64,000 bases of DNA from Bacteroidales bacterium (lineage in GTDB: Bacteria; Bacteroidota; Bacteroidia; Bacteroidales; UBA3663). Location of the stretch: assembly GCA_024694125.1 (NCBI GenBank), contig JAILKE010000060.1, positions 35,247 to 99,246 of the forward strand, written 5' to 3'. The notes under the pieces were generated by a model, which made no database searches, was not told where the DNA came from, and saw only the letters and a program-made list of their open reading frames with translations. Positions 4,975 to 58,800 of this stretch are shown piece after piece. The position numbers were made by a program, and so were the translations under genes. The first letter of the stretch is position 1. Every line of letters begins with the position of its first letter.

Positions 4975-5230
4975 TTTACTAGAATTTGAGAATAAATATT
5001 TTTTACTAGAATTCGAGAATTATAAGAATTATTCTTATGGCCGACAAGAATTCGAGATTAACTGGAATTAATTGTTATAGTTCACTAGAATTTGAGAATT
5101 ATAAGAATTAGTTTATATGGTCAATAGAATTTGAGAATAAATATTTTTTACTAGAATTTGAGAATTATAAGAATTATTTTTTATGGTCAATAGAATTTGG
5201 GAATTATAGGAATTAGTTTCTTTAGTTCTA
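4975..5230. repeat. AT-rich complex tandem repeat (TAGAATTTGAGAAT[A/T]A... words)
   Basis: At least six copies of the ACTAGAATT[T/C]GAGAAT core are present. A ~70-bp higher-order unit (tagaatttgagaataaatattttttactagaatt.gagaattataagaattatt) occurs at ~4981-5040 and ~5115-5185. Confidence 0.85.
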
Positions 5231-5283
5231 CATTCAAAAATTAATAATGTTTGACACAATAACCAACTTAAATATATATAATT

Positions 5284-5679: not shown

Positions 5680-5700
5680 CCATCATATCTAATATTACTT

Positions 5701-5747
5701 CATCCCGCCCGTACTTCAATCCGAAGTGCGGGCGGGATGTGTTTATT
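5701..5747 (+). terminator. Rho-independent terminator
   Basis: A 17-bp stem pairs CATCCCGCCCGTACTTC (5701-5717) with GAAGTGCGGGCGGGATG (5723-5739), with one G-U pair. It is followed by TGTTTATT. Confidence 0.8.
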
Positions 5748-5748
5748 A

Positions 5749-5845
5749 ACGAAAAAACTGCGTACGAAAACGAAAAAACTGCGTACGAAAACGAAAGAAC
5801 TTCGTACCAAAACGATAACGAAAACGAAAAAAGCAACGAGAAAAC
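5749..5845 (+). repeat. 21-bp tandem repeat (ACGAAAAAACTGCGTACGAAA)
   Basis: Two perfect units (5749-5769, 5770-5790), one degenerate unit (5791-5811) and an ACGA-rich tail. A reverse-complement relative lies at 27843-27912. Confidence 0.9.
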
Positions 5846-5950
5846 AATAATTATTGCGCGTTAATTGTATAGCAACACACTACTCATTCCATTTTATTCA
5901 CTTCAGCAGAAATACAGATATCCGATTTATATAGGTCTCATCATCTCTTT

Positions 5951-5958
5951 TTAACTTT
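5951..5958 (+). promoter_or_regulatory. -7 box TAACTTTG
   Basis: TAnnTTTG match about 80 nt upstream of the ATG at 6038. Confidence 0.45.
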
Positions 5959-6037
5959 GCATCGACAACAGGAATAGGCCTCTTGTACAACACGCTAAAG
6001 ACTCTCGATGTCACACAAGTGGGAATCGAACGATGCA

Positions 6038-13360: not shown

Positions 13361-13548
13361 TCAGACATACAGCAGTTAGTTCAACTGTCTAACTGACTGA
13401 TTAAGACATAACAAGTGGCCTCGATATCGGATGTATTGAAATGCTCTATTGCTCGTAATGCCACATAAGAGGCCCAAATAGGATTGTTGTGTATCGATAT
13501 AAAAAGACATTATTTTGGTGTGTATTGATATAAATAAGTATTTTGGGG

Positions 13549-13589
13549 GGAGACTGATCGTGAGATTAGTCTCCTCATTTTTTTATTTT
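13549..13589 (+). terminator. Rho-independent terminator
   Basis: The stem pairs GGAGACT (13549-13555) with AGTCTCC (13568-13574). It is followed by CATTTTTTTATTTT. Confidence 0.6.
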
Positions 13590-13613
13590 AAAAGGATTCA
13601 AATTGTTATTTTA

Positions 13614-13662
13614 AAATAATTCAAGTCTCGCAAGTTCAAGACTTGCGAGACTTGAATTATTT
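13614..13662. repeat. 22-bp-stem perfect hairpin (CAAGTCTCGCAAGT family)
   Basis: AAATAATTCAAGTCTCGCAAGT (13614-13635), loop TCAAG, ACTTGCGAGACTTGAATTATTT (13641-13662). It lies between the convergent 3' ends of 11309-13360 (+) and 13702-14610 (-). Confidence 0.9.
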
Positions 13663-13701
13663 AAGGGGAGCAGGAAAAATGGAAAAAAGTATGCTGAGCA
13701 G

Positions 13702-14610
13702 TTAGTTTGTTTTCTGGCACTGCCACAGCGGCTCCTCCTCCCATCCAAGAGGGAAACCCATCATGGTGGGTTGAACACTGGGATATTTCGTTAGAAGAGA
13801 TTTGAAGTCCTGAACAAAAGTATTCTGAGGATTGATGCTGTTAAGCCAATAGGCAATACAACATAGTTGAGGATAAAGGCGGTCGATAGGGAAATTGAAG
13901 TTTGTTATCCACCGCTGACGCATTCGTGAGGTTATCTTTGGACGCACAGCAAAGTGTGCATTCCAAAGACGTGCATGATGGGCACAATAGTTGCGGACGA
14001 TAGTGAGACTTTCCAACCAACTGCGCAGATACTCATGTTGGGGCATATCGAAATCGCGAGCCACCCGCTTCATCAGATTGAAGTCGTTCATGTTGTTGTA
14101 AAGTTTGGAAAGCGTTCCGAAAGATGCCACTTCAAGTGTTTTCCATGATGGAGGGAACTCGGGTGAATCATATTTCCTGAAGTGTTCCAGAATGAATTCG
14201 TCGCGACAACGTCCTAACTCCGTGCGCAAAGATTCCAGATTTTTATTGTAGCGGTATTCATTGGCAGCAAACGTGGAATCCATAAACCAGAAGGATCCAT
14301 AGGTCATGGCAAAGTGATGGTTTATTTTTGTCCTTGATGCAATCTCAATATGCTGCAGGGCTTTGAATACCAAAGAGCGAAGCTCGCTATCGAAGTTGTA
14401 AAGTGTCAGAACTGACGAGAATCTGCTTCCACTACGAAAACGATGTATGCGGCTGTTCTCTTCCATTACACGCCAATAACTGGCAAGTCGAAAGTAACTA
14501 ATGTGGTTGAGAACGCTCTGTGCTTCGTTCTCATTTTCAATAATAAGCCCTCGCTGTTTCAGTATGTCTATCTGTTCACCGATGGTGATAGGTTGCTTTG
14601 TGTATTCCAT
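13702..14610 (-). CDS. Abi family protein (AbiD/AbiF-like, Abi_2; HEPN superfamily)
   Basis: The N-terminus has QIDILKQRGL...ISYFRLASYW. The signature is IVRNYCAHHARLWN (Rx4-6H). The gene sits in a visibly AT-richer segment. Confidence 0.85.
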   Translation of the reverse strand: MEYTKQPITIGEQIDILKQRGLIIENENEAQSVLNHISYFRLASYWRVMEENSRIHRFRSGSRFSSVLTLYNFDSELRSLVFKALQHIEIASRTKINHHFAMTYGSFWFMDSTFAANEYRYNKNLESLRTELGRCRDEFILEHFRKYDSPEFPPSWKTLEVASFGTLSKLYNNMNDFNLMKRVARDFDMPQHEYLRSWLESLTIVRNYCAHHARLWNAHFAVRPKITSRMRQRWITNFNFPIDRLYPQLCCIAYWLNSINPQNTFVQDFKSLLTKYPSVQPTMMGFPLGWEEEPLWQCQKTN

Positions 14611-14677
14611 TTAAAAAGAAACGTCCCACCCTGGTCCACTGGTCATGCGACGAGAAGCGTGGTGGGATTTGTTGTTG

Positions 14678-14685
14678 CAAAGGTA
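14678..14685 (-). promoter_or_regulatory. -7 box TACCTTTG (minus strand)
   Basis: The reverse complement of CAAAGGTA matches TAnnTTTG about 70 nt upstream of the Abi start at 14610. Confidence 0.45.
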
Positions 14686-14849
14686 CTGCTTTTATTTGGA
14701 ATAGCCAATTTTTTTGAAGAGAAAGAGTAAAAGTAGCCTAAGAAATCGTCATTTTGCATCAAAAAACATCCTTTTCATATCTTTTTGAATCAATTTGCAC
14801 CAAAAATTAAATAGCGGTACAAGAACCTAATTCTACCCAGTTATTCCCT

Positions 14850-14882
14850 TTCAAGTGGGGGGCAAATTGTCCCCCACTTGAA
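14850..14882. terminator. 12-bp perfect hairpin downstream of the sensor gene
   Basis: TTCAAGTGGGGG (14850-14861), 9-nt loop, CCCCCACTTGAA (14871-14882). There is no clear U tract. Confidence 0.4.
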
Positions 14883-29975: not shown

Positions 29976-30809
29976 ATGAGCAATGACACTCCACGCAAAC
30001 CCGTCGATCTCAACACGATCGAAGAACTGAACTACATCTCGACCCTGGAGGAGGATGCAGTCATCAACGCCTTCATCGACCAACTGCGGTCATGGGGCTA
30101 TGGCAGCATCAACCAGATGGCGGACCTGCAGGCGCTCCTTTGGACATTGGCCCAGAGGGGCATACCCCTGACCAAACTGAACCGTGTAGCGGTGGTGGAG
30201 TGCATTGAGCGCGAACCGTTGTACCTGCCCTTCCTCGCGATGGCGCGGCACTACAACAACTGGTTGCAGGGTCACCACCAACGTCTGCAGTCCGAGGCTG
30301 ACGCCCTGCGCCAGCAATTGAGCCAGACGCAACAGCAATTGGACCAGGCTAAAAAGGAAACGGAACAGGGCCAACAGCAACTGATGGATGCCCGACTGGA
30401 GATGGTCAAGCTGAAGCACGAGATGACGGAACTGAAACTGAAGGCCAAGCCGCAACGCGAGAGTGCCCAGGTGCACCAACTGCGCTACGAACTGAAACGG
30501 GAATACAACCTGCAACTCACGGAGTGGCACAACAAACACCGCCCTGCCAAGAGGGTCTATCAGCAGATGATGCACGAACTGGTCAATCCATGCAGCCCGA
30601 TATGCTGCGCCTACGACCTGACGCAGGAGGAGGACGCCAAGGCATACATCGAGTGGTTCCGCATCGCCCAACGCAAGATCAACAACCCCACCATGAAGGT
30701 GCTCCGCTCCCGATACGAGGGACAGGACATCTCGGCCTTCGAACAACTGGTTGAACTGTACAACCAGGAGTGGAACGGAAAGGAAGAAGATGATGAATTT
30801 ACTATTTGA
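29976..30809 (+). CDS. hypothetical coiled-coil protein (277 aa)
   Basis: Intact ORF with a central Q/E/K-rich heptad region (LRQQLSQTQQQLDQAKKETEQGQQQLMDARLEMVKLKHEMTELKLK). No family was recognised. Confidence 0.6.
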   Translation: MSNDTPRKPVDLNTIEELNYISTLEEDAVINAFIDQLRSWGYGSINQMADLQALLWTLAQRGIPLTKLNRVAVVECIEREPLYLPFLAMARHYNNWLQGHHQRLQSEADALRQQLSQTQQQLDQAKKETEQGQQQLMDARLEMVKLKHEMTELKLKAKPQRESAQVHQLRYELKREYNLQLTEWHNKHRPAKRVYQQMMHELVNPCSPICCAYDLTQEEDAKAYIEWFRIAQRKINNPTMKVLRSRYEGQDISAFEQLVELYNQEWNGKEEDDEFTI

Positions 30810-30942: not shown

Positions 30943-33219
30943 ATGAAACAAACGAATTACCACCTCTTCGACTTCCTGGACTTCGACCCGCAGCTGCAGG
31001 CCGACGAGTCACTGTGGACCGCCTGCCGCCCTACACGCATTGAGTCCATAGGGGGAACGATAGAGATGGAGGTACCCTTCCAACGACAATTGCTCCAGAA
31101 CGACATGCAGGCCGACACCGACGCCCCACGCGAAGTGCACCGCCTGCAGTTGCGCCTATACAACAACCAGACATTGCGCCTGACCATCACGTTGGGCCAC
31201 CCTCAGCTGGCAGCACAGACGGGCGACCTGACCAACGACGAGATGCTCAGCTACGAACCATCGGTCCACACCCTGCCACTGCAGGTGCGCCTGGCAGAAC
31301 AGGACCTGTACGAGGTGGTGGGCGACGACGGCCGCATCTATGCCCGACTGGACAACCGCGAACCGGTACTGGACCCATGGAGCGACCTGCTGCCCGCACC
31401 ACAGGAGACATTGGCCCTGACCCTCTACCCCGAGGGCAACGACAAGGCGGTCCACCTGTCGGCCTATGACCACTTCTCGCCCCCTCGCTACGATGCGCTG
31501 CCATTGGCCTACGTGCGCCGCAACGGCCGCATAGACAGCACGACGCTGTCGGTGGAGTGCCTGCCGGACGAATGCTTCGTCGGCTCGGGCGAACGGTTCA
31601 CCAAGATGGACCTGTCGGGCCGCACCTTCCAGCTCAAGAACCAGGATGGACAGGGTGTCAACAACCGCCGCTGCTACAAGAACGTACCGTTCTGCATGAG
31701 CAACCGCATGTACGGCCTGTTCTACCACACATCGGCGTACAGCAAACTGTCACTGGCGGACCACTCGACCCGCTCGGTACAGATGTTGAGCGAAGAACCG
31801 CAGATGGACCTGTTCGTCATAGGCGGCGAGGTGCCCGAACGCATCCAGTACCACTACCGCCAGTTGACGGGATTCTCGCCGATGCTGCCGCTGTGGAGCT
31901 TCGGCATCTGGATGAGCAGGATGAGCTACTTCTCGGCGGACGAGGTGCAGGCTATCTGCGACCGTCTGCGCCGCGAACACTACCCTTGCGACGTGATCCA
32001 TCTGGACACCGGCTGGTTCAGGACGGACTGGCTGTGTGAGTGGAAGTTCAACGAGGAGCGCTTCCCCGACCCTCGCGGCTTCGTACAGGGGCTGCTGCAC
32101 GACGGGTTCCGCGTGTCGCTGTGGCAGTTGCCCTACGTGGCCGAGGAGGCGGAGCAGTTGGACGAAGCAGTCGCACACCAGTACATTGCCCCTCGCCCCA
32201 ACCGCAAGAGCAACGGCTCGGGCTCGAACTTCTCGACATTGGACTACGCCGGTACCATCGACTTCACCAACCCCGAGGCTGTGGAGTGGTACCAGGGTCT
32301 GCTGCGCCGATTGCTCGACCTGGGCGTGACCTGTATCAAGACCGACTTCGGCGAGAACATCCACATGGATGCACACTACCACGACGGCCGTACGCCCGAA
32401 CAGTTGAACAACATCTACTCCATCCTGTACCAACGCTCGGCATGGGAAGTGACGCGCCAGGTGTGTGGCGACGGCATCGTGTGGGGACGCTCTGCCTGGG
32501 CTGGCGGCCAACGCTACCCACTGCACTGGGGCGGCGACTCGGCTCACTCGTGGGACGGCATGGCAGGCAGCTTGAAGGGTGGACTGCACTTCGGCCTGTC
32601 GGGCTTCTCCTTCTGGAGCCACGACGTACCGGGCTTCCACTCATTGCCCAACTTCATGAACTCGCCTCTGCACGACGACATCTATGTGCGCTGGACCCAG
32701 TTCGGGGTCTTCACCTCGCACATGCGCTACCACGGCACCTGCAAACGCGAACCCTGGGAGTACCCTGCCATCGCCCCTATCGTGCGCCGCTGGTGGCAAC
32801 TGCGCTACCGCCTGATGCCCTACATCGTCCAGCAGGCTGAACAGTGCACGCACTCGGGCTACCCGATGGTGCGCGCCCTGCTCTACCATCACCCGGACGA
32901 CGTGACGGTATGGCACATCGACGATGAATATTACTTCGGCGACTCGTTCCTGGTCTGCCCTGTGATGAACTCGGACAACCGCCGCGACATCTACCTGCCC
33001 GAAGGCGAGTGGGTACATTTCTTCACTGGCCAGAAGTGGCAAGGCGGTCGCTGGTACAAGCAGGTTGAGGTTCCCCTGGAACAGATGCCTGTCTTCGTGC
33101 ATCCCGGCACTGTGATTCCGGTCTATCCCGACCAGGTGGAGTGCACCGACCAGATGGACCTGTCGCGCCAGACCAGCCTCGTGATCGATGAAGAGTTTCA
33201 TGGGATGAAAATGGATTAG
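30943..33219 (+). CDS. glycoside hydrolase family 31 (alpha-xylosidase/alpha-glucosidase-like)
   Basis: The GH31 catalytic region is VTCIKTDFGE, followed by PLHWGGDS and WTQFGVFTSHMRYHG. There is no signal peptide. Confidence 0.88.
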   Translation: MKQTNYHLFDFLDFDPQLQADESLWTACRPTRIESIGGTIEMEVPFQRQLLQNDMQADTDAPREVHRLQLRLYNNQTLRLTITLGHPQLAAQTGDLTNDEMLSYEPSVHTLPLQVRLAEQDLYEVVGDDGRIYARLDNREPVLDPWSDLLPAPQETLALTLYPEGNDKAVHLSAYDHFSPPRYDALPLAYVRRNGRIDSTTLSVECLPDECFVGSGERFTKMDLSGRTFQLKNQDGQGVNNRRCYKNVPFCMSNRMYGLFYHTSAYSKLSLADHSTRSVQMLSEEPQMDLFVIGGEVPERIQYHYRQLTGFSPMLPLWSFGIWMSRMSYFSADEVQAICDRLRREHYPCDVIHLDTGWFRTDWLCEWKFNEERFPDPRGFVQGLLHDGFRVSLWQLPYVAEEAEQLDEAVAHQYIAPRPNRKSNGSGSNFSTLDYAGTIDFTNPEAVEWYQGLLRRLLDLGVTCIKTDFGENIHMDAHYHDGRTPEQLNNIYSILYQRSAWEVTRQVCGDGIVWGRSAWAGGQRYPLHWGGDSAHSWDGMAGSLKGGLHFGLSGFSFWSHDVPGFHSLPNFMNSPLHDDIYVRWTQFGVFTSHMRYHGTCKREPWEYPAIAPIVRRWWQLRYRLMPYIVQQAEQCTHSGYPMVRALLYHHPDDVTVWHIDDEYYFGDSFLVCPVMNSDNRRDIYLPEGEWVHFFTGQKWQGGRWYKQVEVPLEQMPVFVHPGTVIPVYPDQVECTDQMDLSRQTSLVIDEEFHGMKMD

Positions 33220-33332: not shown

Positions 33333-33554
33333 ATGGAAGCAATTACTTTTAACCCAGCTCAAGTGCATGTGCTCAATTTGATGTCACATATCAAGTCACC
33401 TGTAGGTTTGGAGCAATTGAAAAAGCAACTTGCTGACTTCTATGCCAAACAGGTAGATGACGAGATGGACGCTCTATGGGAAAGTGGACAATGGGACGAA
33501 AAGAAAATGCAGGAATTGCGCGGTTCTCATTTCCGTACCCCCTATAACAAATAA
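33333..33554 (+). CDS. putative antitoxin of the PIN toxin (73 aa)
   Basis: Small acidic ORF ending 3 nt before the PIN gene. The call rests on position only. Confidence 0.5.
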   Translation: MEAITFNPAQVHVLNLMSHIKSPVGLEQLKKQLADFYAKQVDDEMDALWESGQWDEKKMQELRGSHFRTPYNK

Positions 33555-33557
33555 GAG

Positions 33558-33980
33558 ATGAATCCAGTAGTTATCGACACAAATTGTCTGCTGCAGATTA
33601 TAGCCCGCCAAAGTCCCTATCGTCCGATATGGGACGCTTTCATTGCGGGCCAATATGAACTGTGTGTATCGAATGAGATTCTTGAGGAGTATCAGGAGAT
33701 TCTGGCGCAACAAATAACGCCCTCCATAGCGGAGAATATCGTTTTGCTTATTTTGAATAAAGAGAACGTAAGATTCGTTGACCCTCATTTCCGCATGATG
33801 ATTATTACGGCAGACCCGGATGACAACAAGTTCGTCGATTGTGCCTTTGCTGCTGGAGCGGATTATCTGGTAACGGAGGACAACCATTTCAATGTGCTGC
33901 ACTCCACTCCTTTTCCCCAGTTGAACCTTGTCACTCTGGACGAGTTTATGCGGACAAGAATCATAAATGGCAATTTGTGA
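33558..33980 (+). CDS. PIN-domain toxin (PIN_3-like putative RNase)
   Basis: The N-terminal VVIDTNCLLQ carries the first acidic residue. ILEEYQEIL, DPDDNKFVDCA and YLVTEDNHF are typical of PIN_3 toxins. Confidence 0.8.
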   Translation: MNPVVIDTNCLLQIIARQSPYRPIWDAFIAGQYELCVSNEILEEYQEILAQQITPSIAENIVLLILNKENVRFVDPHFRMMIITADPDDNKFVDCAFAAGADYLVTEDNHFNVLHSTPFPQLNLVTLDEFMRTRIINGNL

Positions 33981-34024: not shown

Positions 34025-36889
34025 ATGAAGACGTGGAAAGACAACATGGCCGAAACCAAGCAACACTACATTGACTGGTGGAACCATAAAGGCATAGTAC
34101 TCAACATGTGGGAACACTTCCAGGTGGGAGTGAAACCACACGGCCCATACGCTGGGGAGGAACCTGTGCGCGAGGCTCAATCGACGGGTTTCGGCACGGG
34201 CAACGTCATACCCGGCGCCCCTGTACCGAAGGACAATGACCAGAAATGGTTTGACCCGGAGTGGAGAGCCGAATATCTGGACTGGTACGTCGGACACTCC
34301 TGCCTCAAGGCCGATATGTTGCCTGTAGCCAACACGCAGCTGGGACCTGGCTCGATGTCGGCCATACTGGGCGCTCAGTTCGAGGGCGGTGACGATACCA
34401 TCTGGATTCATCCCGACCCGAACTATACGGACGACTTCCAGTTTGACCCCAATCACCCGAACTACCTGCTGCACAAACGTCTGCTGCAGGCGTGCAAGAA
34501 GCGCGCCCAGGGACACTACTACGTAGGTATGCCCGACCTGATGGAGGGCATCGACGTACTGGCTGGCATGAAGGGTACTGACCGCGTGATGATGGACATC
34601 ATGGAACAGCCAGAGGTGCTCGAGGCACAGATGCAACGCATCAACGATGCCTACTTCAAGGTCTTTGACGAACTGTACGACATCATCAAGGAGGAGGACG
34701 GCGAGATGGCTTTCTGCTACTTCTCGGCATGGGCGCCGGGCAAGATGTCCAAGCTGCAGTGCGACCTATCGACCATGCTGAGCGACGAGGACTACCGACG
34801 CTTCGTGCAGCCGTTCATCCGCGAGCAGTGCCAGCACATCCCATACACAATCTATCATCTGGACGGCGTGGGCGCCATGCACCATCTGCCTGCATTGCTC
34901 GAAATCAAGGAACTCAAAGCCATTCAGTGGACTCCCGGCGTAGGCGAACCCCAAGGTGGATCGCCCAAGTGGTATGACCTGTACCGCAAGATACTGGCTG
35001 GCGGCAAGAGCGTGCTTATCTCGTGGGTCACTCTGCCGGAACTGCGTCCGCTGCTGGAAGCAATCGGCACCGATGGCGTGCATCTGGAAATGGACTTCCA
35101 CAACGAGGAGGAGGTGGCCGAGGCACAGCGCATCATCGACGAGGTTCGCGCTGCCCAACTACGCCCCCGCGGCTCGGCACTGGCCATGGGCCAGTTTGCT
35201 CCAACATCGGGCTACAAACCTATCGCCGTACAACGCCCGCCCCTGGAGGAGGTGATGCGCCAGCGTATCCTCATCTTCGACGGCGCGATGGGTACCACCA
35301 TCCATGCCCTGCACCTGACGGGTACCAGCGGCAGCAACGAGTATCTCAGCATCGAACGCCCCGAGGTGATAGGCGAGATCTACCGCCGTTTCCTGGATGC
35401 GGGATCGGACATCATCACGACCAATACGTTCAATGCACAACGCTGCTCACTGCCCGCTCAGTTTGCGGACCAGACGCGCGAGATCAACATAGCTGCCACC
35501 CGACTGGCACGTCAGATGGCTGACGCCTTCACATTGGCCCATCCCGACAAACCCCGTTACGTCCTGGGCGGTGCAGGTCCAACACGCGAGACAATCTCGA
35601 TGGAGGGCTCGGCGCTCAACTTCGACCAGTTGGTCCAGATATACCAGGAACAGTGCGAGGCGCAACTGGAAGCCGGCGTGGACGGTCTGTTGAATGAGAC
35701 TATCTTCGACACGCAGAACTGCGAAGCCTATCTGCACGCCGCCATGGCTGCAATGCAGCGGACTGGCATACGGGTACCGCTCTTACTGAGTTTCACGGTA
35801 CGCACGGCTGAGGGTTACAATATGGTGGGACAGAACGTCATAGACTTCTGCAAGCAGTTGCACCCGGACTACCACGTGCTGTCGGTGGGCATCAACTGCA
35901 ACCCCGACATCCCGATGGTGACCGACCTGACACGCCGCCTCGCCACCGAGACGCCTTACTATATCTCGGTCTTCCCCAACGCGGGCATCCCGGATGCAGA
36001 CGGGGTCTTCCCCACTCAGCCGGACCTGTTCCAGCGCCAGATGTGGCCGATGTTCGACGAACATATCATCAACATCGTGGGCGGTTGCTGTGGTACGCAC
36101 GACGGTCACATGCGGGCATTGGCCCAACTGGTCGAGCCCGCTCCCGGCTGCTTTGTCTCTCCCCGCATCCCGGGCAAGTGGCCCGCAGTCGGCACATCGG
36201 CCCCAACCGCCGCACAAGGTACCCAGTCATCGGCCGAAACTGGTCCTAAAGTCACTCCGCTGCAGCAGGCAGTCCTGTCGGGCAAGGTAGCCGATGCCCA
36301 ACCATTGGTCCAGACCATGCTCAATGAGGGCACTCCAGGCAGCGACATCATCAACGAGATGATTGGCGCAATGAGCATACTGGGCAGCCGATTCGAGGAG
36401 GGCAAGGCCTTCGTGCCGCAACTGCTGATGGCGGGCAAGACGATGAAGGCTGCCATGGCTATCATCAAGGAATACCAGACCTCGCACGGCGGCTCGGACC
36501 AAGTAGAGAGCCTCGGCAAGGTTGTGGTCGGCACGGTCAAAGGCGACCTGCACGACATCGGCAAGAACCTGGTCATCTCGATGCTGGAAGGCTCCGGATT
36601 CGAGGTCATTGACCTGGGCATCGATGTCCCTGCCGAGAAGTTCGTCGAAGCGGTCAAACGTGAGAAAGCCGACATCCTCAGTATGTCTGCCCTACTCACC
36701 ACCACCATGACCTATATGCCCGAAGTCCTGAAAGCCCTCTGCGATGCCGGCATCCGCGACCAGGTCAAGGTCATGATAGGTGGCGCTCCCGTCACTCAGG
36801 ACTTCTGTGACCGCATCGGCGCCGATGCCTACACGGACAATGCCAACCAGGCCGTCGCCTGCGCCAAGGAGTTGATGAAGAAGAAATGA
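34025..36889 (+). CDS. MetH-like corrinoid-dependent methyltransferase: unknown N-terminal module + homocysteine S-methyltransferase domain + B12-binding cap/Rossmann domains
   Basis: Hcy domain, aa ~408-705: IFDGAMGT, IITTNTFNA, ETIFDT, VGINC and GGCCGTHDGH (Zn cysteines). B12 domain, aa ~743-954: GTVKGDLHDIGKNLV, SALLTTTM and MIGGAP. Aa 1-380 carry no motif I can place, and I saw no pterin-binding (GERxN-type) or AdoMet-reactivation domain. Confidence 0.75.
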   Translation: MKTWKDNMAETKQHYIDWWNHKGIVLNMWEHFQVGVKPHGPYAGEEPVREAQSTGFGTGNVIPGAPVPKDNDQKWFDPEWRAEYLDWYVGHSCLKADMLPVANTQLGPGSMSAILGAQFEGGDDTIWIHPDPNYTDDFQFDPNHPNYLLHKRLLQACKKRAQGHYYVGMPDLMEGIDVLAGMKGTDRVMMDIMEQPEVLEAQMQRINDAYFKVFDELYDIIKEEDGEMAFCYFSAWAPGKMSKLQCDLSTMLSDEDYRRFVQPFIREQCQHIPYTIYHLDGVGAMHHLPALLEIKELKAIQWTPGVGEPQGGSPKWYDLYRKILAGGKSVLISWVTLPELRPLLEAIGTDGVHLEMDFHNEEEVAEAQRIIDEVRAAQLRPRGSALAMGQFAPTSGYKPIAVQRPPLEEVMRQRILIFDGAMGTTIHALHLTGTSGSNEYLSIERPEVIGEIYRRFLDAGSDIITTNTFNAQRCSLPAQFADQTREINIAATRLARQMADAFTLAHPDKPRYVLGGAGPTRETISMEGSALNFDQLVQIYQEQCEAQLEAGVDGLLNETIFDTQNCEAYLHAAMAAMQRTGIRVPLLLSFTVRTAEGYNMVGQNVIDFCKQLHPDYHVLSVGINCNPDIPMVTDLTRRLATETPYYISVFPNAGIPDADGVFPTQPDLFQRQMWPMFDEHIINIVGGCCGTHDGHMRALAQLVEPAPGCFVSPRIPGKWPAVGTSAPTAAQGTQSSAETGPKVTPLQQAVLSGKVADAQPLVQTMLNEGTPGSDIINEMIGAMSILGSRFEEGKAFVPQLLMAGKTMKAAMAIIKEYQTSHGGSDQVESLGKVVVGTVKGDLHDIGKNLVISMLEGSGFEVIDLGIDVPAEKFVEAVKREKADILSMSALLTTTMTYMPEVLKALCDAGIRDQVKVMIGGAPVTQDFCDRIGADAYTDNANQAVACAKELMKKK

Positions 36890-36970
36890 CTCATATTGAA
36901 CAACGTTCGTAAAAAAAACTCATTGAGATACAGCATTTTAACTCAATTACAATCAAAAACAAGGAAAGTC

Positions 36971-37020
36971 GCTACTTCGGATCTTTCGCGAAAATCCGAA
37001 GTAGCACTCCCGATTTTCTC
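36971..37020 (+). terminator. hairpin terminator after the MetH-like gene
   Basis: A 12-bp perfect stem pairs GCTACTTCGGAT (36971-36982) with ATCCGAAGTAGC (36994-37005). GATTTTCTC follows a few nt downstream. Confidence 0.5.
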
Positions 37021-37211
37021 TGAATATCTGAAGTAAAGACCCCCCTTACGTCCGAGAACCGTTCCAACTGTTCCGGACTCTACATCGTGCACAACCTCTG
37101 TCCCCCATAAAAATGCTTTCGGTTGTGCGCATTTTCTCACTTTCGTGCAAAGAATTGGTCAAATATCCAACAAATTGGCCCCTACACACAAAAACATTCC
37201 CATTTTTTCAT

Positions 37212-37219
37212 TATATTTG
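37212..37219 (+). promoter_or_regulatory. -7 box TATATTTG
   Basis: TAnnTTTG match about 67 nt upstream of the ATG at 37286. Confidence 0.5.
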
Positions 37220-37285
37220 CGAGTTGAATTATTGTGGGCGGCACACGCGGCAAGTGGGTCGTCACAATATAAAACTTATACAACC

Positions 37286-38929
37286 ATGACAGAACAGCTA
37301 CATATCATTGATTGGGTCATATTGGCCACGTATTTCATTGTATTGCTGGCGATAGGCCTGTGGGCATCGCGACAGCAGAAACAGACAGGCAAGGGTGCAT
37401 TCCTGGCGAGCAAGTCGCTCAGCTGGCATCACATCGGCCTGAGTATGTGGGGAACCAATGTAGGACCTTCGATGCTGATAGCCTCATGTTCGAGCGGCTT
37501 TGCTGCTGGCGTGGTATCGGGCAACTATGCATGGTATGCCTTCGTCTTCATCGCCCTGCTGGCATTCGTCTTTGCGCCGCGGTACCTGGGCGAGAACATC
37601 TCGACCCTGCCGGAGTTCATGGGCAGGAGGTTTGGTTCTTCGACACGGACCATGCTGGCATGGTACACCATCGTGACGATATTGATCTCGTGGCTGGCAT
37701 TGACGCTCTTTGCCGGCGGCGTATTGATCAGACAGATATTCGGCATCCCGATGTTCTGGTCAGCGCTGATTCTGTTGGCCATAGCGGCATTCTTCACGAT
37801 GCTGGGCGGCCTGCGCGCAGTGGCCTACACGAACGTCTATCAGATGACATTGCTCATCGTGGTATCGACCCTGCTCACCGTGGCTGGCATAGTCAAACTG
37901 GGCGGCGGCTCGTTCATGGGTGGCATCGATGTATTGAGCAACCCCGACATCGTGCCAGCACATTACTGGAACCTGTTCCAGCCACTCTCAGACCCGGACT
38001 TCCCCTGGTTGCCCATCCTGCTGGGCTATCCCGTGATGGGTATCTGGTTCTGGTGCACCGACCAGAGTATGGTCCAACCGGTTCTGGCTGCCCGCTCCCT
38101 GCGCGAGGGACAGAAAGGCGCCAACTTCTGCGGCTGGCTCAAAATATTGGACGTAGCCATCTATATCATACCGGGCATCGTGTGCTTCGCATTGTGCAAG
38201 ACCGGAGTCTTCACCCAGACTCCATCGGCCGATGACTCGTATATGTTCATGGTGACCAATATCTTCCCCGTCGGAATGGTGGGTCTGGTACTGGCCGTAC
38301 TGACCGCTGCATTGGTATCGACCATCGGATCGGCGCTCAATGCACTGTCAACCGTCTTCACGATGGACATCTATGTGAAGAACTTCCAGCAGGATGCCAC
38401 CGAGGCACAGATACGCCGCACGGCTCACATCGTCACCGTACTGGGCGCATTGGTCAGCATAGTGATATGCGTGGCAGTGGACCTGATCAAGGACATTCCG
38501 TTGTTCAACATCTTCCAGTCTGTACTGTCGTTCATCGCACCGCCTATGGCAGCCGTATTCGTGATGGGCGTATTCTGGAAACGTTGCACACCACTGGCTG
38601 CCAACCTGACATTGACCTTCGGCACCGGAGTCTGCCTCCTGGTCGGCATATTGTACTACACGATGCCCGATGGCGTGATTCCGGCCTCGGTAGTGACGTC
38701 GGAATTCGGCATAGTGACGGGAGTGCTCAAATGGCCACACTTCATGATGCTGTCGTTCTACCTCTTCGTCATGCTGATATTGGCTATGGTCATCATCAGC
38801 CTGTGCGACAAGACTCCGAACAACCGTACCGACATGCGTCGCGTGAGTGAACCAATGTCCCGCAGCGTGTGGATATCGTGGATTGCCTTGGCCGTGGTGA
38901 TGGTAGGACTGTATATATTCTTCAATTGA
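37286..38929 (+). CDS. sodium:solute symporter (SSS) family transporter
   Basis: The start is at MTEQLHIIDWVILATYFIVLLAIGLWASRQQ (typical SSS N-terminus), followed by about 13-14 TM segments. The upstream part of the ORF-track frame includes the promoter. Confidence 0.85.
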   Translation: MTEQLHIIDWVILATYFIVLLAIGLWASRQQKQTGKGAFLASKSLSWHHIGLSMWGTNVGPSMLIASCSSGFAAGVVSGNYAWYAFVFIALLAFVFAPRYLGENISTLPEFMGRRFGSSTRTMLAWYTIVTILISWLALTLFAGGVLIRQIFGIPMFWSALILLAIAAFFTMLGGLRAVAYTNVYQMTLLIVVSTLLTVAGIVKLGGGSFMGGIDVLSNPDIVPAHYWNLFQPLSDPDFPWLPILLGYPVMGIWFWCTDQSMVQPVLAARSLREGQKGANFCGWLKILDVAIYIIPGIVCFALCKTGVFTQTPSADDSYMFMVTNIFPVGMVGLVLAVLTAALVSTIGSALNALSTVFTMDIYVKNFQQDATEAQIRRTAHIVTVLGALVSIVICVAVDLIKDIPLFNIFQSVLSFIAPPMAAVFVMGVFWKRCTPLAANLTLTFGTGVCLLVGILYYTMPDGVIPASVVTSEFGIVTGVLKWPHFMMLSFYLFVMLILAMVIISLCDKTPNNRTDMRRVSEPMSRSVWISWIALAVVMVGLYIFFN

Positions 38930-39144: not shown

Positions 39145-39837
39145 ATGAATTATAGCGATTTTGAGCATTTTATGTCGCAAAAGCGACTTAGCAGATACCT
39201 TTCGGCTTGCCACAACGACAAACGGAAGGCCATGACTCTCTATCGTTTAAATATGAGATTGGCGCAAGAACTGCTGACAATGGTGGCATGCTTCGAAGTC
39301 TCGTTGAGAAACGCTATTGACAATATTCTAGTACCTCAATTTGGGGCGGAATGGCTGAAAGATTCAGTTTCACCAGGAGGCATATTCACCAATCCAAAGC
39401 TCTGCAAGACATTCAAAACCATAGACAATGCCCTGCGCAAACTCAGTTCCCAAGGCACATATTCTCACTCCAAATTATTAGCCCAAATGGACTTCGGCAT
39501 GTGGAAATACATGTTCTCGCCAGTTCAGTACACCCTGACCAATCAGTCGTTACTGAAAGCATTTCCTTTCAAGCAGCGTTCTACACCCCAATTGCACATT
39601 AACCAATCATACATATTCAACGAACTGGACAAGGTAAACACCTTGCGAAACAGGATTGCTCACCACGAACCGCTCTGTTTCCCTGTTGGACAAGCTGTGA
39701 TTGACACAACTTACGTCAGAGTTGAGTACAACAAAATCAAAACTCTATATGCTTGGATGGGCATCGACAGCAGTTCCATGCTCTACGGCCTGGACCACGT
39801 ACTGCAGGTGTGTGACAAAATAGACAAATTACAATAA
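39145..39837 (+). CDS. Abi_2-like / HEPN-domain protein (230 aa)
   Basis: The N-terminus has FMSQKRLSRYL...MTLYRLNMRLAQELL..EVSLRN and the C-terminal motif is LRNRIAHHEP (Rx4-6H). The segment is AT-richer. The gene ends 9 nt before rlmI. Confidence 0.7.
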   Translation: MNYSDFEHFMSQKRLSRYLSACHNDKRKAMTLYRLNMRLAQELLTMVACFEVSLRNAIDNILVPQFGAEWLKDSVSPGGIFTNPKLCKTFKTIDNALRKLSSQGTYSHSKLLAQMDFGMWKYMFSPVQYTLTNQSLLKAFPFKQRSTPQLHINQSYIFNELDKVNTLRNRIAHHEPLCFPVGQAVIDTTYVRVEYNKIKTLYAWMGIDSSSMLYGLDHVLQVCDKIDKLQ

Positions 39838-53781: not shown

Positions 53782-55602
53782 ATGAAAACTTTCCTTACAC
53801 CACTCCTCTCACTTTTTACCTTAGTATTATCGTTCAGTTCGCCGATGTATGCCGCCCACGTCACACATCTGCAGGCTGGACCGGACCTGCACGCCACGCT
53901 GCGTGAGGCGCGCGAGATGCGCCGCCTGGGTCACCTTGCACCTACCGACACCCTCTGCATCACCTTGCCCGACGGCGAGTACCACCTCACGTCGCCCCTG
54001 CTGTTGCGCCCCGAGGACAGCGGCACACCCCAGGGTCCCACCGTTCTGCGCGCAGCCCATCCCGGCCGTGCCATCATAGACGGAGGCGTAGCCCTGCAGG
54101 GGTGGCGTCGTCCCACGGCAGTCGAGGCTCGCGATGTACCAGCCGCAGTCCGTCAGCAGTTGTGGGTGTGCGATGCCCCACGCGTGAATGGCCGCATCGT
54201 CTATACCCGCCAACTGTGGCAGGACGGACGTCGTCTGCCCCAGGCCTCGCTCGTCCCCACGGACAGTCTGTTGCCCATGCTCGGCTTCGACCGTCAGCGC
54301 CGCGAGATAGTCATCCCCACCTCCGTACTGCCTGGTGGCACGGTACTCACGTCTGGTTTCCAGTGCACGATGTTGGTGCACCAGCGTTGGGCCATAGCCC
54401 TGCTCCGCATCGCCTCGATGCGCTCAGAGGCCGACGGCACGCACGTCACATTCTTTGAGCCCGAGAGCCAGCGGGAGTTCGACCATCCCTGGCCACAACC
54501 CGTCATAGGCGACACCCTGCAAGATGACCGCATCGTCTCGTCGTCGTTCAATCTGGTGGGCGCACCCGCACTCCTGGACCGCCCCGGCGAATGGGTACAG
54601 CGTTACCCTGACGGCCTCATCTATATGCTCAGCGACGACCCCGGTGGAGCCGCCCCTGCTGCACCCGTCATCATCCCTGTCACCGAACAGCTGGTACAGG
54701 TACAGGGCACCATCAGTCGCCCCGTGCACGACATCCAGTTCGAGGGACTCACCTTCCGCCACACCCAGTGGAACACCCCTACCAGCCAGGGCTGGGTCAC
54801 CCTGCAGGCAGGACTGCCCATCATCGATGCCTACAAGCTCCATCAGCCCGGCCTGCCGCACAAGGCCTCGCTCGAAAACCAAGCCTGGATAGGCCGTCCC
54901 CAGTCAGCCATCACCCTGAGTGGCGTGCAGCGCATCCACTTTGACCGATGCACGGTCACCCATACCGGGGCGTGCGGCATTGACTACACCGAGGCAGCCT
55001 CGGCGTGTCACGTCACCCAGTGTTCGTTCACCGACATCGGCAGCACCGCCATCCTGGTGGGCCACTTCCCCGACGGCGGTTACGAGACGCACGTCCCCTT
55101 CATGCCCGACAGTCCCGAACAGATCTGCCACGACATCACCCTGAGTCACAATCGCGTCACCGACATCGGCATGGACGATTGGGGCGCCTGTGCCATCAAT
55201 GCCGGCTACGTGCACCACACCACCATTGCCGACAACGAGGTCTCCGGCTGCAAGTGGAGCGGCATCTGCCTGGGCTGGGGTTGGTTGCCCCGTCCCGCCT
55301 CGCGCAGCGTACGCCGGCAGTGGACCATGCACCACAACCACCTGCTCCGCAACTACGTGCACCACTTCGGACAGCAGTTGCACGACTGCGGTGCCCTCTA
55401 TACCCTCTCCTGGCAGCCCTACTCCACCATCGTCGGCAACCGTCTGGAGCAGATGGGCCGTGCCCCCTATGCCACCAATGACCGCGTCTTCTACATCTAT
55501 TTCGACGAGGCGACCGATGCCTTCGACGTGCACGACAACCAGATGCCCGAACTCCGCGTGGGCTACAATCAGCCCGGCCCCGACCTGCGCACCGACTTCT
55601 GA
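53782..55602 (+). CDS. secreted right-handed parallel beta-helix repeat protein
   Basis: The signal peptide is MKTFLTPLLSLFTLVLSFSSPMYA. PbH1-like repeats are present (HTGACGIDY, NRVTDIGMDDWGACAINAG, ADNEVSGCKWSGICLGWGW). Confidence 0.7.
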   Translation: MKTFLTPLLSLFTLVLSFSSPMYAAHVTHLQAGPDLHATLREAREMRRLGHLAPTDTLCITLPDGEYHLTSPLLLRPEDSGTPQGPTVLRAAHPGRAIIDGGVALQGWRRPTAVEARDVPAAVRQQLWVCDAPRVNGRIVYTRQLWQDGRRLPQASLVPTDSLLPMLGFDRQRREIVIPTSVLPGGTVLTSGFQCTMLVHQRWAIALLRIASMRSEADGTHVTFFEPESQREFDHPWPQPVIGDTLQDDRIVSSSFNLVGAPALLDRPGEWVQRYPDGLIYMLSDDPGGAAPAAPVIIPVTEQLVQVQGTISRPVHDIQFEGLTFRHTQWNTPTSQGWVTLQAGLPIIDAYKLHQPGLPHKASLENQAWIGRPQSAITLSGVQRIHFDRCTVTHTGACGIDYTEAASACHVTQCSFTDIGSTAILVGHFPDGGYETHVPFMPDSPEQICHDITLSHNRVTDIGMDDWGACAINAGYVHHTTIADNEVSGCKWSGICLGWGWLPRPASRSVRRQWTMHHNHLLRNYVHHFGQQLHDCGALYTLSWQPYSTIVGNRLEQMGRAPYATNDRVFYIYFDEATDAFDVHDNQMPELRVGYNQPGPDLRTDF

Positions 55603-55873: not shown

Positions 55874-58800
55874 TCACCGCTTCAACTCATCGAGCACATA
55901 CCGGGATGGGGATTGGCTCAATATATACTTTATATAGTCGAGCGTGACCATGATGTTGCAGGTACGGGACGGACGTGGGTAGTAGATGGCCGAGAGGCTC
56001 GATATCTCGCGGTCGAAGTTGAGGCCTATCAGTTCGCCCCGGGCATTGAGCACAGGACTGCCCGACTGGCCCGCGGCAGTCTCGGCTGTCGAGGTGAAGC
56101 AACAGGGGACGGGGACGCCAGGTTTGTGGCTCAGTTCGCCCACACGGCCGGCCGAGTAGCGGAGCGTCTTGTTGGCATCAATGACCGGAGTCGATCCCTG
56201 CTGATACTCGCTCAGGGCCGTCATATAGAGGGCATAGAGGTCGGAGTTGCGGCGGCGGAACGAGATGGCATCACGGTTGATGCGCGAGACCCGGTTCACA
56301 TAGAACGAGAGAAGGAAACGGTACAGGGCATCGTCCTGCAACGCCTGTGTGCCCTCCTCGACCACCTTATCGACCCAGGCGTACAGTCGCGCACTGTCCG
56401 TCAGCATGGAGTGGGCATAGAGGCTGTCCAGGTTCGATGCCTGGCGCAGGATATCCTCCTCGACATAGGCGGCATTGATCCCTTTCAGATAGTAAGGGAC
56501 CAGCAGCTTCATCATCGCCAGGTCCAGGTCGTAGTCGAACGCCGCATAGAACTCCTGCATGTTGCGGTGCAGGTCCTTCAGTTCACGTTCCATAGCCCGG
56601 ACGCGGTTCTTGCGGTTGGCACGGTCTATGGCGATGAGCTTCTCGAACTTGCCGGCGAAGGGGAAGACATTCGGGCCATTGAGCACACACTGCAGGAAGA
56701 CCTCCTCCATGTGGTTGAACTGCGTCAGGACCTGGTAGTTGCTCTGCATGTCGGCCAGCAACGTAGCGCCGTAACGCTGCGAGCGCACCGAGTCGTCACA
56801 GATCCACTGCTGCAACGCCTGGTCATCCAGTCTGCGGCGTTCGATGATATTGTCGCGCAGCGTACCTTCCACTTCGCCCTTGGCGCGCAGATAGGTATTG
56901 TTGATGCTGCTGATGCGGGCGGCACAGTCAGCCTGGCGGCGGGCAGGGCCATCGGCCATCATCGCGGCGAGCAGCTCCATCTTGGCACGGCTCACCTCCA
57001 TGCGGAAGCGGGTATCGTAGTTGACGATACGGTCTATGGCGAACCACGGTATGTGCTTGCGCGTCTGGGCTGGATAGCCTGCCACCAGTACCAGTTCGCC
57101 TGGACGGACAGAGTCGGTCGCCAGTGGCAGATACGTCTCCGGATGATAGGGGACATTCCCCTTGTGATAGTTCGCCGGCTTGTTCTTGGCGCTGCCATAC
57201 ACACGCAGCACGGCGAAGTCGGCCGACACACGTGGCCATCGCCAGTTGACCGTGTCGCCCCCCTCCATCGCCAGCGACTGCGGCGGTGCAGCCACGATAC
57301 GCACGTCGTTGAACGACCTGTATTTGGCCACTACATACTGCGTACCGCCCATCATTGAGTATGCACGATACGACTCCTTGGCCGACTTGGGCAGCCGTTT
57401 CATCATCTCCTCGGCACGTTGGGAGACCACAGCCTGCCGTTCGCGCACCGTGAGTGTGTCGCTCAGGTCGCAGCACAGGGAGTCGGTCACATCCGTGCAC
57501 CACAGCAACTGGTTGAGTTGCAGCCCGAAGAGCGGAGCCTCCTCCTCGCGGCTCTGGGCATAACAGCCGTAGCGCAGGTATTCGGGCCCGCGGTCAGAGA
57601 GCCGTTCTATGTAGCGGCGCACCGAATGGAAATTGGTCAGTACCAGACCATCGGCCGAGATAAATGCTGCCGATGACGTGGGCGAGAAGGTGCCGCCGTC
57701 CTGGCTCACCGAGAGTATCGCCTGGTTCACACACGCCTCGTTGATGCTGTTGATCTGCTGCGCACTGAGGGCCAGTCCCTCGTTGTGCAACATAGCCATT
57801 ACCGTGTCCGACGTCAGCTGGTGGGGCAACAGCAACCCCGGCAGTGCCTGCGGACGGGCTGCCGGACGCGACATCACAGCCAGCATCTTGCTGCGCGCTG
57901 CCTCCACCTGGGCATTGGCACGGCGGGCAGCAGCTGCCACGGCAGTATCGGCCGCCGCCTCGGGTTGCAGCAGGAAGCGGTACCCATCGGTCAGTTCGCG
58001 TTGCAGCATGGCCTGCTGGGCAGGAGCATCACGTCCTGGCAGCAGGTGACCCAGCAGTTCGAAGTAATACTGTTGCAACTCGCTCCTCGATGCCGGCATA
58101 CCCTCATACGGGTCTGCATGACCGGGGTTCCACTGGGCGATATGTCCGTCGATGTAGCGCAGGTTCCTGATACCATATTCGGTCGATGCCAGCGCATCAT
58201 TGCCCAGGTCCGAAGCCTGCACGTCGATGGCATCGGCATCGGACTGAGAGCGGCGCATCAGTCGCTTGTAGAGGCAGACCGATTGGCTCTGGTGTGCATC
58301 GACATAGGCGCGGTACTCGGCATCGGTCCCGAACTGTCCATATCCTGCCTGGATGGCGTAGATGTCGTAGTCGCCCAGATAGGGTGGACAGACCTGCGTC
58401 ACGCCGTCACCCGGCTGCGCCACATAGTTGAAGCGGGCATAGTCCATGATGCTGGGCGTGGTGCCGCAGCGGGCACAGAACGATGGGTCACGCAGCGAGT
58501 CGGTCGCATAGGCGAACGATGCACGGAAATTGTGTTCCAGTCCCAGGCAGTGTCCCACCTCGTGTGCAGCGGCATACCGGATGATGCGCCGCAGCGTGCT
58601 GTCCGGGAGAACCTGCCGCGCCTCGGGATTGTAGGCAGCCGTCTGCAGGAAGTACCACGACCGCAGGCGCTCTATCACGTTGGAGTAGAACAGCACACTG
58701 GCGGTCAATATCTCGCCGCTGCGCGGGTCACAGTAGTGCTTGCCCTCGGCATTGGCGAACTCACTGTCCACACACCAGAACATGTTGGTACCGAAGGCGA

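Follow-up and report, generated by a model that had tools for sequence, protein, structure and literature searches.

A Candidate Single-Chain Corrinoid Methyltransferase Linking O-Methylated Sugars to Homocysteine in Bacteroidales

Introduction

From what donor does a protein built like a methionine synthase draw its methyl group when it has no folate-binding domain? The question is raised by a gene at positions 34025-36889 of a 64,000-nucleotide stretch of DNA from a Bacteroidales bacterium (GenBank assembly GCA_024694125.1, contig JAILKE010000060.1, positions 35,247 to 99,246 of the forward strand), which was analyzed at its full length and is called the window below. Canonical MetH (EC 2.1.1.13) has the domain order homocysteine-pterin-cap-B12(-AdoMet), where AdoMet stands for the S-adenosylmethionine-binding reactivation domain. 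The window protein combines homocysteine- and B12-binding domains with an N-terminal module of its own. An earlier note, made from the sequence alone, had suggested that it is a single-chain system that takes a methyl group from a non-folate donor and delivers it to homocysteine, and the comparative evidence on fold, domain fusions, and gene neighbors presented here lends support to that suggestion.

We consider it very probable that the protein is a corrinoid-dependent methyltransferase with a non-folate donor and with homocysteine as the acceptor. We also think it likely, with less assurance, that its three modules form a single-chain system carrying methyl groups to homocysteine from an O-methylated sugar. 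As the specific donor we tentatively put forward the 2-O-methyl-xylose of rhamnogalacturonan II (RG-II), either free or within a disaccharide.

Domain Architecture of the Fusion Protein

The open reading frame (ORF) opens with ATG and translates into 954 amino acids (aa), divided as follows.

34025..36889, + strand: whole fusion gene, 954 aa, encoding the N-terminal module (N-module), homocysteine (Hcy) domain, B12 cap, and B12 Rossmann domain (ORF and translation, Pfam, NCBIfam)
34025..35164, + strand: N-module, aa 1-380, proposed methyl-donor:corrinoid methyltransferase (MT1) (AlphaFold2 model, Foldseek, hhalign)
35165..35236, + strand: linker 1, aa 381-404, predicted disordered (predicted local distance difference test score, pLDDT, <50 at aa 380-396)
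35237..36139, + strand: Hcy barrel, aa 405-705, proposed methyl-corrinoid:homocysteine methyltransferase (MT2) (PF02574, MetH-like relatives, invariant cysteines)
36140..36250, + strand: linker 2, aa 706-742, rich in P, A, S, T, and G, predicted disordered (sequence; pLDDT <50 at aa 721-740)
36251..36886, + strand: corrinoid module, aa 743-954, a four-helix cap plus Rossmann domain (PF02607, PF02310, Protein Data Bank [PDB] relatives)

Pfam places S-methyl_trans (PF02574) at aa 416-702 (E 5.7e-69), B12-binding_2 (PF02607) at aa 746-815 (E 2.6e-15), and B12-binding (PF02310) at aa 831-944 (E 3.1e-29). Across 63 aligned full-length homologs, the zinc cysteines C625, C688, and C689 are invariant, as are DxHxxG (D841, H843, G846), SxL (888-890), and GG (919-920). 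The corresponding motifs are VGINC (621-625), GGCCGT (686-691), GDLHDIGKN (840-848), SALLTTT (888-894), and MIGGAP (917-922), and the N-module carries LGPGSMSAILG (106-116) and a stretch beginning YTIYHLDG (274-307). The note's reading of a zinc-cysteine Hcy domain at about aa 408-705 and of a B12 cap with a DxHxxG Rossmann domain at about aa 743-954, joined by a short P/A/S/T/G-rich linker, therefore stands, and every motif that it quoted is present at the residues it gave.

The full-length AlphaFold model (pLDDT 81.7) consists of folded N, Hcy, cap, and Rossmann modules connected by the two disordered stretches, with no hidden further domain; aa 1-380 form a folded unit of their own, as had been proposed. 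Pfam found neither Pterin_bind (PF00809, searched at E up to 1) nor the AdoMet reactivation domain Met_synt_B12 (PF02965) in the fusion protein, which agrees with the model and with the earlier observation that both blocks are missing. The protein falls well below the equivalog cut-offs for metH (376 versus 1010.85 bits for TIGR02082, 336 versus 1497 for NF007024), and it matches none of the MttB/MtgB and MtaB family models of Pfam and NCBIfam.

The two C-terminal modules have different relatives. The nearest solved structures to the Hcy domain are the Hcy domains of MetH. The C-terminus fits the NCBIfam corrinoid-protein models MtgC, pyl_corrinoid, and MtbC (E ~1e-58; the MtgC and pyl_corrinoid scores fall under the curated cut-offs of those models), and its nearest PDB relatives are 1y80, MttC (7xcn, chain 7xcn_M), 4jgi, and MtmC (3ezx), with MetH only fifth. 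These comparisons place the B12 module with the methylotroph corrinoid proteins and not with MetH, and the fusion protein as a whole reads as a mosaic, not as a MetH that has lost its folate domain. The Hcy barrel, the proposed acceptor-side MT2, is complete within the same chain. An exact-sequence lookup of the 954-aa protein returned no record, and its context is drawn from relatives at 55-98% identity.

The N-Terminal Module

The AlphaFold2 model of the N-module, built from a 60-sequence alignment, is confident (pLDDT 91.6; predicted template-modeling score, pTM, 0.89). Its best Foldseek matches are to MtaA, the methylcobalamin:coenzyme M methyltransferase (4ay8 and 4ay7; E 4e-9, template-modeling score 0.54-0.63, 10-12% identity), followed by uroporphyrinogen decarboxylases (UroD; 2inf, 1j93) and then by MetE barrels. 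When the profile of the N-module and its homologs (the N-family, described below) was aligned by hhalign with that of the MtaA-like proteins encoded beside many of them, the match had a probability of 93.3%. As modeled, the N-module is a TIM barrel of the URO-D/MtaA/MetE-like fold and a remote homolog of the MtaA-like proteins. The low-confidence guess of a URO-D/MtaA-type barrel was thus right at the level of fold, because MtaA is both the top fold match and a strong profile match. The note had also considered that aa 1-380 might turn out to be a pterin-binding domain; they are MtaA/UroD-like, and pterin-binding barrels of the dihydropteroate synthase (DHPS) type match at E ~0.02 only.

At the level of sequence the module is far removed from described families. 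The N-module of the window protein has no NCBIfam match, to TIGR01463 of the MtaA/CmuA family or otherwise, and only a sub-threshold Pfam match to URO-D (PF01208; E 0.27, aa 182-292, 10.7 bits versus a cut-off of 23.9), and ten representatives of the N-family likewise gave no significant Pfam match, with URO-D again sub-threshold. A PDB search with the N-family profile found no sequence relative, the best hit being an aldolase (E 0.36).

The profile alignment pairs the invariant YHLDG of the N-family with the LHNCG zinc motif of the MtaA-like neighbors. The His is retained, the Cys is replaced by an invariant Asp, and the region of the third ligand differs; the His-x-Cys...Cys zinc site of the thiol-methylating URO-D/MtaA/CmuA members is not found in the N-module, whereas the MtaA-like neighbors keep this signature in full. 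Residues invariant in the family include W19, W127, Q245, D247, H278, D280, and G281. We speculate that His and Asp (possibly with Glu/Asp/His at 353-357), standing in place of the zinc-thiolate ligands of MtaA, could form a harder Lewis-acid site suited to an ether oxygen.

Family Distribution and Ties to Corrinoid Chemistry

Neither Pfam nor NCBIfam has a model for the N-family, which is a large one: 1,962 clusters at 50% identity (E up to 0.001) came out of a scan of 1.84 billion representative proteins, and the GTDB species-representative genomes contain at least 590 loci. The best 80 of these loci are almost wholly from Bacteroidales (Prevotella, Palleniella, Xylanibacter, Marseilla, Bacteroides, Phocaeicola, and Duncaniella), with one metagenome-assembled genome (MAG) among them labeled Oscillibacter; the closest, at 90% identity, is in an uncultured Bacteroidales MAG. 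Most members are free proteins of about 360 aa, and free members are labeled "hypothetical" in records from Verrucomicrobia, Planctomycetota, Opitutus, and Armatimonadota.

Members occur in five settings. A 601-aa form with N-module, cap, and B12 domain (N-B12), named "corrinoid protein" in its sources, is very common in Bacteroides and matches the description of B. thetaiotaomicron BT_0340. The window architecture, in which the Hcy domain lies between N-module and cap (N-Hcy-B12, 940-1,033 aa), is found in Prevotellaceae and other Bacteroidales, with at least 120 clusters of full-length homologs at 90% identity that are 55-98% identical to the window protein. One metagenome protein, P0281, has the order Pterin_bind, cap, B12, and N-family domain. 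Elsewhere a free N-family protein is encoded beside genes for a corrinoid protein and a homocysteine methyltransferase, or, most commonly of all, beside genes for a family 31 glycoside hydrolase (GH31) and a sugar transporter.

These three covalent fusions, which are independent of one another, together with the gene clusters, tie the N-family to corrinoid methyl transfer. At four loci (L011, L127, L146, and L168) a free N-family gene accompanies genes for a corrinoid protein and a free homocysteine methyltransferase, and because the same three parts exist there as separate genes, the window protein can be regarded as the fused form of this triad. On an Opitutus-type contig (L010), a free N-family gene has as its neighbors DUF1638, a corrinoid protein of 210 aa, and a member of the URO-D family, and DUF1638 and DUF2284 lie near some free or fused relatives. 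The acceptor module varies among these arrangements (pterin, homocysteine, or MtaA-like) while the N-family domain is constant, so that the N-module fits a substrate-specific methyltransferase on the donor side. From its fold, its remote homology, its fusions, and its neighborhoods we infer that the N-module acts as the MT1.

A Conserved Gene Neighborhood

Two conserved partners of the fusion gene are present nearby in the window.

30943..33219, + strand: GH31 alpha-xylosidase-like hydrolase, conserved partner (Pfam, PDB 5f7c, NCBIfam PRK10658)
37286..38929, + strand: sugar-type sodium:solute symporter (SSS), proposed to import the methylated sugar or disaccharide (Pfam SSF, PRK10484, TIGR00813)

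The GH31 protein is near-equal in length and highly similar to PDB 5f7c (E=0), which we take to be BT_0339; the next match is YicI, the alpha-xylosidase of Escherichia coli. It is probably cytoplasmic, since it has no signal peptide. Co-occurrence of these and other genes was counted in species-representative loci of at least 17 kb.

N-Hcy-B12, 47 loci: GH141 in 30, GH31 in 33, SSF in 37, MtaA-like in 28, Met_synt_B12 in 23
N-B12, 9 loci: GH141 in 9, GH31 in 9, SSF in 9, MtaA-like in 8, Met_synt_B12 in 8

The transporter gene, which the note had singled out as a possible importer of the donor, is thus confirmed and is a conserved partner. The GH141 of the clusters carries a signal peptide and matches BT1002 (PDB 5mqp, E 2.8e-155). 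Mapping by tblastn in the species genomes showed the same six-gene set in several different orders. In B. ovatus, GH141, GH31, the 601-aa gene, and SSF follow one another, with MtaA-like and Met_synt_B12 on the opposite strand; on Prevotella-type contigs an AraC regulator comes first, followed by GH141, GH31, the triple fusion, and SSF. A separate class of loci without GH31 and SSF was considered and rejected, since tblastn found both genes there, rearranged. For B. thetaiotaomicron, papers annotate BT_0338 as a GH141 enzyme, BT0339 as an alpha-xylosidase, and BT_0340/0342/0343 as corrinoid proteins ("Mta"), which agrees with the B. ovatus order; the B. thetaiotaomicron locus is known to us from those annotations alone.

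The association with GH31 extends across phyla and all three architectures. Among distant free members, for which neighbors within 8 kb were examined in 44 metagenome loci of at least 6 kb (Verrucomicrobia-like), GH31 is present in 24 loci and GH141 in 5. By Pfam, the commonest immediate neighbors are MFS_2 sugar transporters, GH31, and altronate/galactarate-dehydratase-like genes, followed by AraC, GH2, and GH141, and at one locus a divergent GH141 gene adjoins the N-family, MFS_2, and GH31 genes. The locus of P0281 also has an AraC regulator and GH31 nearby.

Because the MtaA-like partner occurs with both architectures, as do the reactivation genes, the Hcy domain is an addition and not a replacement, and the idea that it substitutes for the MtaA-like protein was rejected. 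Wherever both were mapped, the MtaA-like and free Met_synt_B12 genes lie side by side or overlap on one strand, however the other genes are arranged (L001 at 13194-14874, L028, L031, L037, L074, and others). The free Met_synt_B12 protein was found in related loci as counted above, and the window contains no reductive activator; no RamA-type activator was seen with the fusion system.

Some neighbors are restricted to subsets of loci. In 10 of the 44 free-member loci (in the set L092-L106 plus L115) an altronate/galactarate-dehydratase-like gene lies a few kilobases upstream, the copies sharing 77-100% identity with one another, and other free-member loci carry GFO/IDH/MocA oxidoreductases; these neighbors suggest a linked sugar-acid pathway in that clade. 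On two Prevotella-type contigs (L006 and L008, 14876-17665), LutABC-like lactate-utilization genes lie directly downstream of the cluster, as might be expected if the fucose half of the disaccharide discussed below were broken down via lactaldehyde and lactate.

A Proposed Pathway

The donor, which the earlier note left at "non-folate", can be narrowed to a probable O-methylated sugar. BT1002 releases 2-O-methyl-D-xylose-alpha-1,3-L-fucose from side chain A of RG-II (PMC10154630). A pathway of release, import, cleavage, and demethylation is proposed because the clusters combine a BT1002-like GH141, a cytoplasmic YicI-like GH31, and a sugar-type SSS transporter. In this scheme the secreted GH141 encoded in the clusters of related genomes would release the disaccharide from RG-II, the SSS transporter would take it up, and the GH31 enzyme would cleave it in the cytoplasm. 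The N-barrel would then present the O-methylated sugar to the cob(I)alamin of the cap/Rossmann module, so that methyl-cob(III)alamin forms and the sugar is set free. Swinging on the two flexible linkers, the B12 module would move from the N-barrel to the central Hcy barrel, where a zinc-bound homocysteine thiolate would accept the methyl group to yield methionine. Removal of the 2-O-methyl group would free the xylose for catabolism and salvage the methyl group as methionine. Should the cobalamin occasionally be oxidized to cob(II)alamin, the free AdoMet-binding protein of related clusters would restore it in trans. Which way the methyl group moves and what its donor is, like the MT1 role, we infer from these comparisons.

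Two further loci may bear on the scheme. According to the listing in a 2026 preprint, an RG-II polysaccharide utilization locus of Flavobacterium ends with three unknown genes, GH31_3, and GH141, an arrangement that fits the pathway. BVU_2642-2648 of P. vulgatus are co-regulated on RG-II by a preprint account, and they may or may not correspond to the fusion cluster.

Evidence Against the Proposal and Alternative Explanations

Several points weigh against the pathway as drawn. For cob(I)alamin to attack an aliphatic methyl ether, strong activation by a Lewis acid or a proton is needed. Of the 44 distant free-member loci, only 3 have a corrinoid-protein gene within 8 kb (41 are without one), so that in those organisms either the partner gene lies at another site or the module has an activity that needs no corrinoid; the link to corrinoids is carried by the fusions and by a minority of the clusters. 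The MtaA-like partner of both architectures could be a second enzyme on either the acceptor or the donor side, and the assignment of MT1 and MT2 could be more complex than proposed. In the 64-kb window, moreover, neither a reactivation-protein gene nor an MtaA-like gene was found.

The most direct difficulty comes from B. thetaiotaomicron, which appears to carry the cluster and yet leaves the disaccharide. This species is reported to cleave all RG-II linkages but that of 2-O-Me-Xyl-alpha-1,3-Fuc; this disaccharide accumulates (PMC7939467). B. cellulosilyticus likewise secretes it. In the one mention of the family that our searches met, BT_0340/0342/0343 are listed by annotation only among the B12-binding proteins of B. 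thetaiotaomicron, and they are the sole one of five such systems that was missed by a B12 probe (PMC8941943). One possibility is that the cluster is not expressed under laboratory conditions, which would also agree with its being missed by the probe; another is that it acts on some other methylated glycoside and not on this disaccharide. No paper on the N-family, on the demethylation of sugars by corrinoid-dependent enzymes, or on what BT_0340-0343 do was found in our literature searches.

Three other explanations have to be weighed against a sugar-to-homocysteine methyltransferase. The unused disaccharide of B. thetaiotaomicron would be accommodated if the donor were a small non-sugar methyl compound (methanol from pectin methyl esters, methylthiol, methylamine, or a methoxylated aromatic) with homocysteine still the acceptor, the glycosidase neighbors then reflecting shared regulation during plant-fiber digestion. 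The same idea would suit L011, where the free N-family member belongs to an island of mixed methyltransferases that includes MtaB and several URO-D paralogs, and the sources that name N-family fusions di/trimethylamine corrinoid proteins. We nevertheless find it unlikely: the GH31 association persists in different phyla and in all three architectures, the adjacent transporters are of the sugar-type SSS or MFS_2 kinds, and the protein resembles neither the MtaB nor the MttB families. A weak further point is that the invariant residues are Trp- and Asp/Glu-rich, as in sugar-binding sites. A different possibility is that the N-module is a sugar-processing or sugar-sensing barrel that transfers no methyl group, with the MtaA-like neighbor as the donor-side enzyme or with a regulatory B12 module. 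Most free members do lack a nearby corrinoid protein while having GH31, oxidoreductases, and sugar-acid dehydratases, and the MtaA-like gene accompanies many clusters; the three covalent fusions are nonetheless to B12 modules of the methyl-carrier type, the MtaA-like neighbor retains the thiol-activating zinc motif typical of acceptor-side enzymes, and the window and its closest relative (L012) have an intact fusion with no MtaA-like gene nearby. To our knowledge, the characterized members of this barrel superfamily, UroD aside, are methyltransferases, which also argues against such a barrel, and we judge it quite improbable.

Very improbable, in our estimate, is a non-canonical methionine synthase acting on methyl-tetrahydrofolate, with the N-module as a MetE-like folate barrel in place of the pterin domain. 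Such an enzyme would be consistent with the presence of MetE barrels among the fold matches and with a Hcy domain that is nearest to MetH, yet the MetE match is weaker than that to MtaA and DHPS-type barrels barely match. P0281 carries a canonical Pterin_bind beside its N-family domain, which would be redundant if the N-module bound folate, and a housekeeping methionine synthase would give no reason for the conserved association with GH31, GH141, and sugar transporters. Nor is the fusion the standard MetH of its clade, an outcome that the note had allowed for: in B. thetaiotaomicron a separate MetH, BT_0180, is reported alongside BT_0340/0342/0343.

Comparison with Known Systems

The fusion protein shares with MetH a zinc-Cys3 Hcy barrel, a B12 cap with a DxHxxG Rossmann domain, and a modular single chain with flexible linkers, and the second half-reaction, from methyl-cobalamin to homocysteine, is expected to be the same. 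It differs in having no pterin-binding or AdoMet domain, in its order (N-module, Hcy, cap, B12), in a B12 module nearer to methylotroph corrinoid proteins, and in a donor that would not be folate.

In CmuA, the chloromethane methyltransferase, a donor-side URO-D-like barrel of the MtaA/CmuA type is fused to a corrinoid domain; it lacks a homocysteine domain and is linked to folate on the acceptor side. The 601-aa Bacteroides form resembles it as a fusion of donor barrel and corrinoid module, whereas CmuA belongs to the MtaA/CmuA family proper and the N-module matches no NCBIfam model.

The three-component O-demethylase and methylotroph systems (those of Desulfitobacterium and Acetobacterium, MtaABC, and MtgBCA) likewise have two methyltransferase barrels that share a mobile corrinoid module, and the module is of the same type (1y80, MttC, and 4jgi, a Desulfitobacterium O-demethylase corrinoid protein). 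The aromatic O-demethylase MT1s belong to the URO-D-like superfamily (PMC10418091), as does the MT1-like N-module. The fusion departs from these systems in having all modules in one chain, in an MT1-like family that falls below the Pfam URO-D threshold, in using homocysteine in place of tetrahydrofolate or coenzyme M as the acceptor, and in its proposed donor, an aliphatic carbohydrate methyl ether as opposed to an aryl methyl ether, methanol, or methylamine. The mlp gene clusters of Type 1 (PMC10418091) were considered as a possible occurrence of the N-family and rejected, as they are from Firmicutes and encode other URO-D family proteins.

In Ruegeria pomeroyi, a split MetH/MtgBCDE system uses one corrinoid protein for glycine betaine demethylation and methionine synthesis, and it resembles the present case in its non-folate methyl donor and homocysteine-binding domain, there a separate subunit (PMC12478193). 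It differs in that all of its parts are separate subunits, its MT1 is of the MttB superfamily, its methyl group is proposed to go through tetrahydrofolate by way of a pterin subunit, and it belongs to aerobic marine Alphaproteobacteria. A functional analog is the cytochrome P450 of marine bacteria that demethylates 6-O-methyl-D-galactose and so enables catabolism of methylated algal or plant glycan (PMC6292453); that reaction is an O2-dependent oxidation of unrelated mechanism that uses no corrinoid, releases formaldehyde, and leaves the methyl group unconserved. It is the only sugar methyl-ether demethylase that our literature searches turned up.

Modular corrinoid methyltransferases are already known, and what is new here is the proposed donor-side family, the fusion architecture, and probably the substrate class. 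The N-family may even be the first corrinoid-dependent carbohydrate O-demethylase, passing the methyl group of RG-II 2-O-methyl-xylose to homocysteine on the same chain in Prevotellaceae and related Bacteroidales, a proposal that we hold with less than even confidence. If it is true, a large unnamed family (~2,000 clusters, at least 590 species loci) would constitute a new class of substrate-specific corrinoid methyltransferase, and anaerobic B12-dependent ether cleavage would extend beyond aryl methyl ethers and methanol to the methyl ethers of sugars. There would then be a candidate route for the methylated sugars of RG-II, including the sole RG-II disaccharide left by B. thetaiotaomicron, and BT_0340/0342/0343, probably with adjacent genes, would gain a testable function. 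Dietary pectin methyl ethers would be a folate-independent, B12-dependent source of methionine in the gut, and in gut and rumen communities rich in Prevotella, dietary fiber and vitamin B12 would be linked to the supply of methionine.

Other Features of the Window

Three further features lie around the fusion gene or downstream of it.

33334..33980, + strand: insertion between GH31 and fusion gene, an antitoxin-like small ORF plus a PIN-domain toxin (Pfam PIN_3)
36970..37006, no strand assigned: hairpin with a 16-bp stem in the 396-bp gap (36890-37285) between fusion gene and transporter gene (sequence, terminator scan)
53782..55602, + strand: GH141 gene, 17 kb downstream, 46% identical to the cluster GH141 of L006 (tblastn, Pfam GH141_M)

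The toxin-antitoxin insertion is not part of the system. In L012, GH31 abuts the fusion gene, and in another relative (L005) a DNA methylase and a ResIII helicase occupy the same gap, which seems to be a landing site for mobile toxin and defense genes. Another defense-type neighbor, an Abi_2 (abortive-infection-like) gene at 39145-39837, lies directly downstream of the SSS gene. The gap between fusion and transporter genes is shorter in relatives (~55 bp in L012, ~150 bp in L031 and L037). Of the terminator-like hairpin that the note placed between these two genes, the 16-bp stem is there, whereas the terminator scan called it on the minus strand only; terminator-like sites in the region are not above shuffled expectation, and the hairpin does not argue against a link between fusion and transporter. 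The GH141 gene stands among housekeeping genes (dxr, an M50 peptidase) and may be a displaced member of the cluster.

No canonical metH or pterin-domain gene is present among the annotated ORFs of the window. A 1,228-aa ORF at 55874-59560 (- strand), considered as metH for its length, was rejected, being a fusion of Met-zincin (DUF4953) and peptidase S46. An Rfam scan of the whole window found a single tRNA and no cobalamin riboswitch. Just upstream of GH31, positions 29976-30809 encode a 277-aa glutamine-rich protein, apparently a coiled coil, with no Pfam match; L005 holds a 268-aa ORF, also with no Pfam match, at the equivalent position. The G+C content is 42-45% at positions 1-6000 and ~55% in the remaining window, and the former segment may have been acquired horizontally.

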